The notes under the pieces were generated by a model. It had not been told where the DNA came from. It saw nothing but the letters and a program-made list of their open reading frames with translations, and made no database searches. Below are positions 44,091 through 47,577 of a stretch of DNA of 54,561 nucleotides, one piece after another. Source of the DNA: Escherichia coli (GTDB taxonomy: Bacteria; Pseudomonadota; Gammaproteobacteria; Enterobacterales; Enterobacteriaceae); the NCBI RefSeq assembly GCF_003334785.1, contig NZ_QOWV01000022.1; one strand, 5' to 3'. Each line of letters begins with the position of its first letter. Positions within the stretch are counted from its first letter, which is position 1. A program made the translations under genes and the position numbers.

Positions 44091-45542
44091 ATGGAGAGCA
44101 TTAATAATCAAGTGCAGTCGGTACGCCAGTTGCTGGCCATTCCCCAACTGGCCATCCCAAGCTATCAGCGACCTTACCGCTGGGGCTCCAAGAATATCTC
44201 GGATCTCTTTACCGATTTGGCAACCCATCAGGGCAAGAGCGCCTACCGGCTGGGCTCGGTGGTGTTTCATCAGCACACCGATAGTGAGCAGGGCGAGATG
44301 CTTGATATCGTCGATGGTCAGCAACGCACCCTGACCCTGATGTTGACCGTCAAGGCGCTGATCGAGGTGCTGGATAACGAAAATCGCAGTGGCAAAGAGA
44401 AGAGTATCCGGTTTCAACGTCAGGATCTGCGTGAGCAATTGCAGGTCTTGCGTGGACCTATCGATGCGTTTATGCAGCGCCAGCGCTTCCCCAGCCGGGA
44501 TTCGGAGTTCAACCTCAGACGCAACTATCTGGAGTTGCGTCGGCTGGTGGCCCGCCCTGAGTTTGACGAGCAGCAAATTGACTTTCTGCTCAACCGCTGT
44601 CAGGTGGTCTGCTTTGTACTGCAGGATATCTCGGAGGCGTTCCAGTTCTTCGATTCGCAAAATGCCCGGGGGCGCGATCTGGCTCCTCACGATCTGCTCA
44701 AGGCATTTCACCTGCGCGAGTTTGCCGGTCATGAGGCCAATCTCAAGGCCGAGGCGGTCGCCCATTGGGAGCGCCTGCCAAGCGACGAGCTGGCCAATCT
44801 GTTCGCCCTCTATCTCTATCGGGTACGCCAGTGGGCCGAGGGCAAGTCGGCCCGCTACTTTGGCAAGGGGGAGGTGGATCTCTTCAAGGGGGTCAACCTA
44901 GATCGGGTAGGGCATTATCCTTACGTGGAGTCGCTGCGCATCGCCCACCACTTTGTCGATGAGTACAACCGCCAGTACCAGCGCAAGATTGACGGCCAGT
45001 ACATGACGTTTCCCTTTCATCTCGACCAGATGATCATCAATGGTCGGCGCTTTTTCGAGATGGCCGAGTACTACCAGACGCGGGTGGCCGCCATCGTGGC
45101 CGAGGAGTCTGATTCCGGCAAGGCGCAATCTGCCACCCTGCTCGGCGAAACGCTGACACCGATGGCCAGCAAGGTGCTATCGACCCTGGGCAGCTACGAG
45201 CGTCGCCACCGCACCGGGGATCGTTATGTGCGGGCCATGTTCGACTGCGCACTGATCTTCTATATCGACAAGTTCGGCAGCCAAGGGCTGTCACTGGCCA
45301 TCGAGAAGTGCTTTATCTGGGCCTATCGCTGCCGCATCCGCCAGCAGGTAGTGCAGTTGGCAACCATGGATAACTATGTGCTGGAGCACAATCTGATCCG
45401 TGCCATTCGTGATGCTCGTCTGCCGGGAGATCTGCACGGCTTCCCTTTGCCTAGCATGAGCAGTCGAGAGAACAAGAACAATCGCAATGGTGCCGAAGAT
45501 GAGCTGGTCGGGCTGTTTCGGGAGATGAAATATTATGAATGA
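44091..45542 (+). CDS. DUF262 (ParB-like nuclease/NTPase domain) protein, GmrS-like
   Basis: About 483 aa; N-terminal SYQRPYRW and DGQQR motifs characteristic of DUF262; high-GC gene (roughly 58%). Confidence 0.6.
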
Positions 45543-47577
45543 TGCAGGCGTTCGCCCCTTTTCCATTCGTGCACTGCTTGAAGATCGCGCCCGCTATCTG
45601 GTGCCCATGTACCAGCGCAACTATGCCTGGGGTGAGGGAGAGATCACCCAGCTGCTGCAGGATGTGCTGGATTATCAGCAAAAATTGGTCAGTGGTAAGG
45701 GGCCGCAAACCTACTATATCGGCACCCTGGTGGTGTTTGCCCGGGACGATGGTAGTTTCGAGGTAATCGATGGCCAGCAGCGCTTTACTACCCTCTCTCT
45801 GCTGGCCAATTGGCTCAAACATCACGCGATAGATTCGGTGGATATGAGCTGGTATCAGACCATCAACCTCGCTTTTGAGAGTCGCCCGATATCGAGCCAT
45901 ACCTTCGAGCGCTTATGGCAGGGTGTTGCCCCCTACGATTTGCGGGGGAGTACCTTCAATGAAGGTTTGGTGAACGGTTTTGAGCTGATTGGCAAGGCAA
46001 TGGCGGATCTTGGTTTGGTAGGGGCTAAACTGACGGCCTTTTGCGACTACCTCTTCAAGCATGTGCAGATCTCTCGTATCGAAGTACCCAAGGATACCGA
46101 TCTCAATCACTTCTTCGAGGCGATGAACAATCGCGGCGAGCAGTTGGAAAAGCATGAAGTGATCAAGGCGCGGCTGATGGAGACGCTGAACCAGATACCC
46201 GAGGAAGAGCATCGTCGCCAAAGTATTCATATCCTGACCCGGGTATGGGATGCCTGCGCCAATATGGAGCGCTATATCCAGTACGGCTTTACCCCGCAAG
46301 AGCGCCACCGTCTGTTTGGTGAGAGCGACTGGGGGCAGTTTGTGCCCCGTGATTTTGCCCATCTGCTTGAACTGCTAGGATCCCCAAACACGGCCGACGC
46401 TGCCGATAAAAGCCGTGCAGCTGCCGGTAGCCAAGGGCGCACCTTGTTGGCCATTTTGCAGGATGACAAGCTTGATGGTGAGCAGACGGTGGAGGAGGAG
46501 AGCGCAGGCTCCGAGCGCTTTAACAGCGTCATCAACTTCTCCAACTTCTTGCTCCATGTGCTGCGACTCGTGAGCCGCGACCCGGGTGATACGGAGGGGG
46601 TGCCGCTTGATGATAAACAACTGGTCGATCAGTTTGAGCTGCGAGTGATAAGGCAACCGGATCCAGTAGCGGCAGTTCAGCGTTTTATCTATGGCCTGTT
46701 AAAGAGCAAGTATCTGTTTGATCAGTTCATCATCAAGCGCGAGTTTGCCGATGGCAAGGATAGTTGGAGTCTGAAGCGGCTGCACTGGTATTCGGAAAAG
46801 AGCGTCAGTTACATCAATACCTTTGACAAGGATGAAAATGAGAATGGTTTCTCTGGTGTTAACCGGCGGGTCCTGATGTTGCTGTCGGCGTTTCATGTGT
46901 CGACCCCGACCCTGGTTTACAAACATTGGCTGAATGGTGCACTGAGATATCTGTTCGACAATTGTCACCCTGATCAACCGGTGGATGCCGGGGCTTATCT
47001 GTCCTATCTGGAGAGTCAGGCTCGCCGCTTTGTCTTCCAGCGCTTTTTGGCGCCTGGTGAAGGGGCTTCCTATTACCAGATGCTCTACCTTGATAACGCC
47101 CTGTTGCCCGCCATCAATGTGGATGAGAGTTGGCACAAGGTGATTACATCCAAACTTCGCTTCGGTCATATCGAGAACAACTTTGTCTTCAACTTCCTCG
47201 ACTATCTGCTGTGGGTACGAGATCGGAATAGCGACAAAGTTGCTGGCTCCTTTGAGTTCACTTTCCGCAGCTCGGTGGAGCACTTCTCACCCCAGCATCC
47301 GATGGATGGCTATAAACCGGTTGAGCAGAGTGCACTCCATTCGTTTGGCAACCTTTGCCTTATCAGCCACAGCAAGAACTCGCGCTTGAGTAACTTCCAG
47401 CCGCAACAGAAGCAGGAGCACTTTGAAGCAAGCCTTGCCAATAACCAGACTGATAGTCTTAAATTGCTTGCTATGATTCGGCTGATGAAAGATAAAGGTC
47501 GTTGGCTGGAAGATGAGATAGCTGAGCATCAACAAGATATGTTGCAGGTCTTACTATCCAATCAAATTCAGCAATAA
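45535..47577 (+). CDS. DUF262 + DUF1524 (His-Me finger) protein, GmrSD-family type IV restriction-enzyme-like
   Basis: 680 aa; N-terminal MYQRNYAW and DGQQRF (DUF262); C-terminal [30 protein letters not shown] (HNH-like DUF1524); 8-nt overlap with the upstream gene. Confidence 0.6.

Follow-up and report, generated by a model that had tools for sequence, protein, structure and literature searches.

A GmrS1/GmrSD2 (TgvAB)-type gene pair, predicted to encode a modification-dependent restriction enzyme, in an Escherichia coli defence island

We analysed two overlapping genes within a 54,561-nt stretch of Escherichia coli DNA, the whole of which is referred to here as the window. Both genes currently carry the RefSeq name "DUF262 domain-containing protein"; we call them gmrS1 and gmrSD2. 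The features of the locus are as follows.

43520-43795, + strand: IS1 insA remnant, a partial pseudogene at the left border of the cassette
43828..53578, + strand: 9.75-kb mobile cassette (IS3 remnant, gmrS1, gmrSD2, hhe), 99.6% identical to K. pneumoniae plasmid pNJST258N3-62b
43860-44066, + strand: IS3-family transposase C-terminal remnant, a partial pseudogene at the left border of the cassette
44081..44086, + strand: AGGAGG Shine-Dalgarno of gmrS1, read from the sequence
44088, + strand: alternative ATG of gmrS1, giving 484 aa in the ORF listing
44091..45542, + strand: gmrS1 (TgvA-type subunit), 483 aa, with a DUF262/GmrSD_N NTPase-like domain and a DUF7834 helical domain; nuclease-free
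44313..44327, + strand: DGQQR of GmrS1, aa 75-79 (483-aa numbering), in the DUF262 nucleotide-binding/hydrolysis pocket
45520-45525, + strand: GGGAGA Shine-Dalgarno before gmrSD2, read from the sequence
45535..45542, + strand: 8-bp overlap ATGAATGA, holding the gmrSD2 start and the gmrS1 stop
45535..47577, + strand: gmrSD2 (TgvB-type subunit), 680 aa, with DUF262/GmrSD_N, a helical linker and a DUF1524/GmrSD_C His-Me finger nuclease
45769..45783, + strand: DGQQR of GmrSD2, aa 79-83
47278..47283, + strand: E582-H583 of GmrSD2, catalytic His-Me finger residues, with N606 and N615 downstream
47683..47701, + strand: candidate terminator-like hairpin and T-run in the 187-bp gmrSD2-hhe spacer, a consensus match only

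The start of gmrS1 at 44091 is the second ATG, as in the RefSeq annotation and in the initial annotation of this DNA, and the upstream AGGAGG favours it over 44088. The initial annotation had also described the two coding sequences as overlapping, which they do by 8 bp; this overlap is probably a translational-coupling site. The ORF listing includes antisense ORFs at 45451 and 45291, i.e. 84 and 244 bp upstream of GmrSD2. Scanning for promoters and terminators returned about as many matches as expected from shuffled sequence, and an Rfam search of 43300-47900 gave zero families above threshold.

Pfam searches of the kind the initial annotation had proposed confirmed its assignment of DUF262 to both proteins and of DUF1524 to the end of the second. 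GmrS1 contains GmrSD_N/DUF262 at residues 21-208 (E 2.8e-28) and DUF7834 at residues 220-465 (E 2e-76), and GmrSD2 contains GmrSD_N at residues 12-215 (E 4.9e-29) and GmrSD_C/DUF1524 at residues 555-671 (E 5e-12). The DUF262 motifs YQRxYxW, DGQQR and FxxxN are intact in both, including the SYQRPYRW form. Given domain matches this strong and exact family motifs, the ORFs are not chance occurrences. Q26, D75-R79 and F184...N191 are invariant columns of GmrS1 in an alignment of 101 family members; for GmrSD2, an alignment of 34 relatives shows invariance at Q27-R28, D79-R83 and F194...N198, as well as at the nuclease residues E582-H583, N606 and N615. Neither protein matches an NCBIfam model. PADLOC returned matches to HEC-06, "Orf5", SspE and mREase_IV, which are partial and mostly N-terminal, so that none of these is the right family.

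Next, we compared the two proteins with the GmrSD_ECOR17 reference proteins given in Supplementary Data 5 of Silas et al. 2025, Nat Commun (PMC12373910). GmrS1 is identical to ECOR17 GmrS1 (APT18_07330) at 481 of 483 positions and GmrSD2 to ECOR17 GmrSD2 (APT18_07335) at 677 of 680, or 99.6% for both subunits. The five substitutions, given as residue here/residue in ECOR17, are G48/D and R294/S in GmrS1 (483-aa numbering) and E279/D, R348/C and E664/V in GmrSD2. GmrSD2 is identical to WP_000995974.1, a member of cluster CLS_003 in the same study, and GmrS1 differs from WP_000443937.1 (cluster CLS_004) only at G48/D48. Position 48 is a variable column in the family alignment, although glycine was found only here and aspartate in every E. 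coli allele compared. The published start of ECOR17 GmrS1 is the second ATG. The ECOR17 system also shares the 8-bp overlap, E582-H583 at the published positions, and the antisense ORFs, which were tested there, 84 and 244 bp upstream of GmrSD2. By sequence, then, the locus is a known system, the GmrS1/GmrSD2 of E. coli ECOR17, already described and tested.

The evidence on function comes from experiments on the ECOR17 allele. GmrSD_ECOR17 restricts T2, T6 and T4 lacking ip2 and ip3; both genes are required, GmrSD2 by itself gives no defence, and an E582A/H583A double mutation abolishes defence (PMC12373910). The proposal of a modification-dependent (type IV) restriction pair, made in the initial annotation from the DNA letters, is thus borne out by an allele 99.6% identical. 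The system fails on T4 whose DNA carries only hydroxymethylcytosine (hmC) or plain C, as glucosyl-hmC DNA is needed, and T4 escapes through Ip3, an injected protein that inhibits GmrSD_ECOR17 (PMC12373910). Transposon insertions in the chromosomal ECOR17 gene sensitised cells (PMC12373910), which indicates that the allele is natively expressed. Phage assays and DGQQR/His-Me mutants, both also suggested in the initial annotation, have already been done on the ECOR17 allele or on TgvAB of Vibrio cholerae (PMC12373910; PMC11014532; PMC11411939).

An AF2 model of GmrS1 reached a pLDDT of 94.1, and a structure search places SspE and a DndI-system protein as its nearest solved folds. That the non-nuclease partner can be modelled confidently, with these predicted fold neighbours, is new but incremental. 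A PDB sequence search found no match for GmrS1, and for GmrSD2 it found matches in the DUF262 region only, at E 3.5e-6 or weaker. When the two families were compared with hhalign, the DUF262 domains alone aligned (probability 99.5%), and a profile-level relation of DUF7834 to the GmrSD2 linker or nuclease was absent. We also modelled a GmrS1-(GGGGS)6-GmrSD2 fusion in AlphaFold with a partly paired alignment; this model (pLDDT 84, pTM 0.53) is uninformative on the interface. Its GmrSD2 nuclease core, at about residues 1091-1110 of the fusion, has a low-confidence pLDDT of 54-63, probably owing to the shallow GmrSD2 alignment. Foldseek with the fused model again recovered SspE, the DndI-system protein and BrxU.

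The pair lies inside a ~35-kb defence island at the glyW-cysT-leuZ tRNA cluster. Its GC content is 54.0% (gmrS1 56.8%, gmrSD2 51.9%, single 300-nt segments up to 60%), compared with 49.5% for hsdR, 44.2% for Hhe, 45.4% for the island and 47.3% for the whole window. The figure of about 58% given in the initial annotation was therefore some 4 points too high, while the pair does, as it stated, stand clearly above its neighbours, which we measured at 44-50%. Acquisition from a higher-GC donor, as it had suggested, is supported by the nearest non-enterobacterial relatives, which come from Vogesella, Aeromonas and Shewanella at 86-91% amino-acid identity, by the IS remnants at the left end, and by the copies on Klebsiella plasmids.

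Homology to the Klebsiella plasmid begins at 43828, and the observation that the pair and Hhe travel as a 9.75-kb cassette, 99.6% identical on that plasmid, is likewise new but incremental. The IS3 remnant falls inside the match in 20/20 of the E. coli matches listed and also on the plasmid. We found the pair in 254 of 5426 complete E. coli genomes and on ~404 plasmids at 99.7% identity, mostly conjugative Klebsiella plasmids. A phage collection gave zero DNA matches to the pair, which is thus not prophage-borne in that set. The Hhe gene, 187 bp downstream of gmrSD2, has an apparent frameshift around 53169, where a 1-base insertion truncates it. Because the pair and Hhe move as a single cassette, we considered a functional coupling between them, a weaker reading that we set aside, since Hhe was absent beside the pair in all more distant loci examined.

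Taken together, these data make it highly probable (about 0.93) that the products of the two genes are the subunits of a modification-dependent (type IV) restriction enzyme, one that belongs to the GmrSD family and is of the GmrS1/GmrSD2 (= TgvAB) type. The inactivity of GmrSD_ECOR17 on hmC-only or plain-C T4, and the escape of T2 from TgvAB through glucosyltransferase loss (PMC11014532; PMC11411939), point to glucosylated hydroxymethylcytosine DNA as the target. In the mechanism we propose, the overlap would couple translation so that GmrS1 and GmrSD2 are made together, and the two proteins would form a hetero-oligomer in place of the intertwined homodimer of BrxU and SspE. Modified DNA would be sensed by the two DUF262 NTPase-like domains, whose nucleotide binding and hydrolysis would license cleavage of incoming phage DNA by the sole DUF1524 nuclease, that of GmrSD2. 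DUF7834 of GmrS1 would be a helical domain with a scaffolding or regulatory rather than a catalytic role. An IS-bordered cassette would have brought the pair into the present genome together with Hhe. We can confidently annotate the locus as gmrS1/gmrSD2, encoding a type IV enzyme of the TgvAB type that depends on glucosyl-hmC and is the target of T4 Ip3. How common it is in E. coli and on Klebsiella plasmids bears on the choice of T4-like phages for therapy directed at these hosts.

An unlikely reading is that the genes are intact yet silent or non-functional in this strain, a decaying passenger whose native promoter was taken by the IS1/IS3 insertion and whose GmrS1 may be impaired by G48. 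The IS remnants stop ~22 bp before the gmrS1 start codon and the promoter-like matches are weak, which leaves expression in this strain an assumption; in addition, G48 is confined to this window among the alleles compared, and the nearby Hhe is truncated. However, neither ORF is truncated and all catalytic motifs are preserved, position 48 varies across the family, and the IS3 remnant is part of a cassette conserved in the listed E. coli genomes and on Klebsiella plasmids. Native expression of the ECOR17 allele would also argue against silence if its IS context is the same.

An even less probable reading is that the pair acts mainly through abortive infection or self-DNA toxicity, its triggered nuclease attacking any DNA rather than incoming modified DNA directly. 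Co-induction of both ECOR17 genes is grossly toxic (PMC12373910), and at high MOI some phages inhibit the growth of TgvAB cultures or partly lyse them (PMC11014532; PMC11411939). Against this, growth of TgvAB cultures infected with Bas35 at MOIs of up to 5 matched that of uninfected controls (PMC11014532; PMC11411939). This growth, the mapping of TgvAB escape to loss of glucosylation and the insensitivity of T4 with hmC or plain C to GmrSD_ECOR17 all fit direct, modification-specific restriction. We regard as very improbable a role without dependence on glucosyl-hmC, either as a nickase pair that senses phosphorothioates in the manner of SspE/DndI or as an accessory to the type I restriction-modification (R-M) system next to it. 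The top structural matches of GmrS1 and the PADLOC SspE models would suit the former, and relatives inside type I R-M operons the latter. Yet the SspE matches mostly cover the N-terminal DUF262 domain only, and dnd/ssp modification genes are absent from the annotation of homologous islands. As to an R-M accessory, the pair also occurs alone (e.g. in Burkholderia), functions alone when cloned (ECOR17 allele, TgvAB), and is separated from the R-M operon here by the IS remnants and the step in GC content.

Beyond ECOR17, the GmrS1/GmrSD2 pair most resembles V. cholerae TgvAB (VC1767/VC1766), described by Gomez & Waters 2024 (PMC11014532) and Vizzarro et al. 2024 (PMC11411939). Pfam identifies GmrSD_N and DUF7834 in TgvA, and the two systems share the order DUF262+DUF7834, then DUF262+DUF1524, an 8-bp ORF overlap, DGQQR in both subunits, an H...N...N nuclease in the second, the requirement for both genes, and glucosylated-hmC phages as targets. 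Mutants of the TgvAB DUF262 domains in DGQQR lose defence (PMC11014532; PMC11411939). BLASTP covering the first 400 residues of the Vibrio proteins gave reciprocal best matches of GmrS1 with TgvA (31% identity over the DUF262 domain, E 1e-14, compared with 8e-9 to TgvB) and of GmrSD2 with TgvB (24% identity, E 6e-16, compared with 1e-8 to TgvA). The homologue table that the TgvAB authors built with MacSyFinder includes the E. coli allele (FORC31) as hit 101.

The setting and target range differ somewhat. While tgvAB lies between hsdS and hsdR, the pair here is found downstream of hsdR and an M48 peptidase gene, behind the IS remnants, and the hsdS-hsdR slot is filled by other genes. R-M embedding was not demanded by the TgvAB authors, whose model matched 1744 stand-alone and 102 embedded systems. 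Restriction of arabinosyl-hmC Mosigvirus phages has been reported for TgvAB but not for the ECOR17 allele. We read six further relatives (L003, L004, L007-L010; 63% to 33% identity to GmrS1), and all six have a gmrS1-type gene with, immediately after it, a gene overlapping it by 1-11 bp. The downstream gene is DUF262+DUF1524 in 4/4 contigs that hold it whole, and a short overlap like the 8-bp one also occurs in L003, L004, L008 and L010. The persistence of this pairing and its short overlap down to 33% identity is a further new but incremental observation. In a V. parahaemolyticus relative the pair is embedded in a type I R-M operon, flanked by hsdS and hsdR, and in a Burkholderia relative the pair stands alone, without such embedding.

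GrwAB of WASA-lineage V. cholerae is also a two-protein, GmrSD-like type IV system with DUF262 in both proteins, DUF1524 in one, and both required (PMC12137116; PMC12409362). Compared by description, its nuclease-free partner has a long, different C-terminus that is not DUF7834, and its phage range is broader and includes 7-deazaguanine-modified phages (PMC12137116; PMC12409362). SspE and the DndI-system DUF262 protein (PDB 6jiv, 7drr, 9jfl) are phosphorothioate sensors whose partners are ssp or dnd modification genes. No such genes turned up when the neighbours of the pair were scanned with PADLOC, or in the annotated homologous islands.

Single-chain GmrSD enzymes (EcoCT596 GmrSD, Eco94GmrSD) and BrxU share the DUF262 NTPase-like sensor, the DUF1524 His-Me nuclease and modification-dependent cleavage of T-even DNA. 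The initial annotation was right that the tandem differs from them in having two genes, but this architecture had already been named, as TgvAB in 2024 and GmrS1/GmrSD2 in 2025. One polypeptide is enough in the single-chain enzymes, with BrxU a homodimer, and their sequence similarity to the pair is almost confined to the DGQQR region. Membership of the single-chain GmrSD/BrxU/HEC-06 group was rejected, given the two genes and top PADLOC matches (HEC-06, mREase_IV) whose best-scoring stretches reach only to about profile position 110. Unlike GmrSD_ECOR17, BrxU cleaves hypomodified DNA as well, and the systems are countered by different T4 internal proteins: Ip1 for CT596, Ip2 for BrxU/ECOR21, and Ip3 for GmrS1/GmrSD2.

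The candidate type IV restriction pair lies on the plus strand and consists of two genes, designated A (gmrS1) and B (gmrSD2).

44081-44086, plus strand: Shine-Dalgarno sequence AGGAGG for A, with spacing that suits the second ATG at 44091
44088/44091..45542, plus strand: gene A (gmrS1), an open reading frame of 484/483 aa
45535..47577, plus strand: gene B (gmrSD2), an open reading frame of 680 aa

The Shine-Dalgarno sequence and the identical RefSeq start favour 44091, also the start given in the initial annotation, as the start of A. The reading frames are co-oriented and share 8 bp (ATGAATGA). 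By Pfam, A contains GmrSD_N/DUF262 (residues 21-208, E 2.8e-28) and DUF7834 (residues 220-465, E 2e-76), and B contains GmrSD_N (residues 12-215, E 4.9e-29) and GmrSD_C/DUF1524 (residues 555-671, E 5e-12). The YQRxYxW, DGQQR, and FxxxN motifs are found in both proteins and the nuclease motif E582-H583...N606...N615 in B, in columns that are invariant in the family alignments. These matches and motifs confirm the initial annotation, which had placed DUF262 in both proteins and DUF1524 in the second and had noted overlapping coding sequences. Its GC content of about 58% was somewhat high, as we measured 54.0% for the pair (A 56.8%, B 51.9%); the pair nevertheless does stand out from its surroundings (hsdR 49.5%, Hhe 44.2%, whole window 47.3%).

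The pair is also crossed by long ORFs on the opposite strand, reaching 249 aa: one at 44016..44765 (minus strand) and others within 44091-47577. The high GC3 in the sense frame, 72% in A, explains them best.

No close solved structure was found for A or B. The AlphaFold2 model of A, from a 101-sequence alignment, has a pLDDT of 94.1. DUF7834 showed no profile-level similarity to B outside the DUF262 domain using hhalign. A fused A-linker-B model gave a pTM of 0.53, a score that by itself has no bearing either way on a complex.

E. coli ECOR17 has a distinct Type IV restriction enzyme needing two GmrS-like genes, GmrS1 with DUF262 only and GmrSD2 with DUF262 and HNH (Silas et al. 2025, Nat Commun, PMC12373910). 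Using the reference sequences in Supplementary Data 5 of that study, A is identical to APT18_07330 at 481/483 residues and B to APT18_07335 at 677/680. B is identical to WP_000995974.1, a member of cluster CLS_003 of Silas et al., and WP_000443937.1, one residue away from A, belongs to their CLS_004. E582 and H583, mutated by those authors, occupy the exact same positions in B, and the two antisense ORFs that they tested, with starts 84 and 244 bp upstream of GmrSD2, correspond to minus-strand ORFs that end at 45451 and 45291. Judged by sequence, the pair is the same system, an allele of GmrSD_ECOR17. Its earlier publication and experimental characterisation make this an ordinary finding and support the earlier interpretation as a restriction pair.

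In ECOR17, neither GmrS1 nor GmrSD2 alone gave protection, and leaky expression of both blocked T2, T6, and T4 lacking ip2 and ip3 (PMC12373910). Defence was abolished by E582A/H583A in GmrSD2, and truncated GmrS1 constructs were non-functional; the two antisense ORFs nearest the gmrSD2 start were retained in these truncations, which gave no defence (PMC12373910). T4 Ip3 inhibited GmrSD_ECOR17, with Ip1 and Ip2 having no effect (PMC12373910). Because only GmrSD_ECOR21, among three GmrSD variants tested, restricted hypomodified T4 (PMC12373910), GmrSD_ECOR17 requires glucosyl-hmC DNA. For TgvAB, the two-protein GmrSD-like system of Vibrio cholerae VPI-2, both genes are required, defence is lost in DGQQR mutants of TgvA or TgvB and in TgvB H571A and N602A, and T2 escapes by loss of alpha-glucosyltransferase (PMC11014532, PMC11411939). 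The need for two subunits and a His-Me site, glucosylated hmC dependence, and Ip3 inhibition are therefore established for the allele or family (PMC12373910, PMC11014532, PMC11411939), and the DGQQR requirement for TgvAB (PMC11014532, PMC11411939). We propose that A and B, probably coupled in translation, would form a hetero-oligomer replacing the BrxU/SspE-type homodimer, in which a single nuclease would be licensed by NTP gating and DUF7834 may serve as a non-catalytic scaffold.

The sole difference between A and WP_000443937.1 is G48 in place of D48. That this substitution, with IS displacement, has silenced the pair in this strain is improbable. Strong induction of both ECOR17 genes was toxic (PMC12373910), and protection was seen under leaky expression; abortive or toxic action instead of direct restriction seems less probable still. 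The V. parahaemolyticus pair is embedded between hsdS and hsdR, the arrangement also seen in VPI-2, and a Burkholderia pair stands alone. A phosphorothioate-sensing or R-M accessory role is the least probable of these readings, and we favor direct restriction by an allele of GmrSD_ECOR17.

The pair lies in a defence island bounded and populated as follows.

18529-18830: tRNA cluster Gly(GCC)-Cys(GCA)-Leu(TAA), just before the island
~19000..53500: island of ~35 kb, directly after the tRNA cluster and before yecA-tyrP
19864..21111 and 29675..30811: island integrase genes
47764..53500, plus strand: Hhe gene, with an extra G near 53169

The island has a GC content of 45.4% vs 50.2% in the flanking core. 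Its order is integrases, WYL-type regulator, hsdM, hsdS, a YecA-family gene, a cold-shock-domain gene, hsdR, an M48 peptidase gene, IS1 and IS3 remnants, A, B, and Hhe, which PADLOC and NCBIfam equivalog matches identify as a known anti-phage helicase. The pair is carried by 254/5426 complete E. coli genomes (at least 80% coverage), and 145 complete genomes carry the full block from the type I R-M genes through the pair to Hhe.

Several neighbours deserve comment. Relative to intact versions of 1911 aa in E. coli 99COLEC and on the Klebsiella plasmid, Hhe has a 1-base insertion; its ORF stops at 53181, losing the last ~106 residues, so that the gene is a pseudogene or else the extra base is a sequencing error. 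The two genes between hsdS and hsdR (36837..39327, plus strand), a slot that houses a TgvAB-type pair in Vibrio, may be embedded defence cargo: the YecA-family gene is a full-length match to PADLOC candidate PDC-S12 (E 1.7e-97), and the other (594 aa) has a weak cold-shock domain as its sole Pfam match (E 2e-4). The minus-strand block 23520..29342 encodes a DUF726 protein, 887-aa and 212-aa hypothetical proteins, a small HTH gene, and the WYL-type HTH regulator (24400..25302), its sole PADLOC match; these may also be defence candidates, and strain 99COLEC has a frameshift in the 887-aa gene. The M48/YgjP-like metallopeptidase gene (42678..43433, plus strand) overlaps the hsdR stop codon, and the hsdR-YgjP pairing likewise follows the embedded pair in a V. 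parahaemolyticus contig (L003, 14509-15225). This metallopeptidase appears to be an accessory conserved in this lineage of type I R-M systems.

Outside the enterobacteria, the nearest relatives come from Vogesella, Aeromonas, and Shewanella (86-91% amino-acid identity), which is consistent with the proposed acquisition from a higher-GC donor. At a threshold of at least 99% identity, the pair is found on 404 plasmids (99.7% among the matches listed); among all plasmids matched (414), Klebsiella accounts for 395, and 367 are predicted to be conjugative. Homology to Klebsiella pneumoniae plasmid pNJST258N3-62b covers 43828..53578 at 99.6% identity, spanning the IS3 remnant, gmrS1, gmrSD2, and hhe, and therefore the mobile unit is a 9.75-kb two-system cassette. 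On this plasmid, the cassette adjoins an IS91-family transposase. None of the more distant loci examined has Hhe beside the pair, so nothing indicates a functional link.

The A family is large, with 428 clusters at 50% identity (E <= 1e-30). In 6/6 further relatives with contigs read, which span 33-63% identity to A, the DUF262+DUF7834 gene is directly followed by a gene overlapping it by 1-11 bp. This partner is DUF262+DUF1524 in 4/4 contigs holding the whole gene, the other two being cut at the contig end and lacking a Pfam record. Two protein searches gave 17 further A/B homologue pairs with members matched on equal-sized contigs. The conserved overlap supports translational coupling of A and B, which we infer. 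TgvA has the Pfam architecture of A (GmrSD_N and DUF7834, E 7e-38), and tgvA/tgvB likewise overlap by 8 bp. In BLASTP comparisons with residues 1-400 of the Vibrio proteins, A matched TgvA at 31% identity (219 aa aligned, E 1e-14) and B matched TgvB at 24% (429 aa aligned, E 6e-16), a reciprocal-best correspondence at low identity. Additionally, hit 101 of the TgvAB model of Vizzarro et al. (Table S5, PMC11411939) is E. coli FORC31 AOT32537.1, a GmrS1 allele. Taken together, the architecture, overlap, BLASTP correspondence, and FORC31 listing indicate that, at the level of sequence, the pair is a divergent member of the TgvAB-type family.
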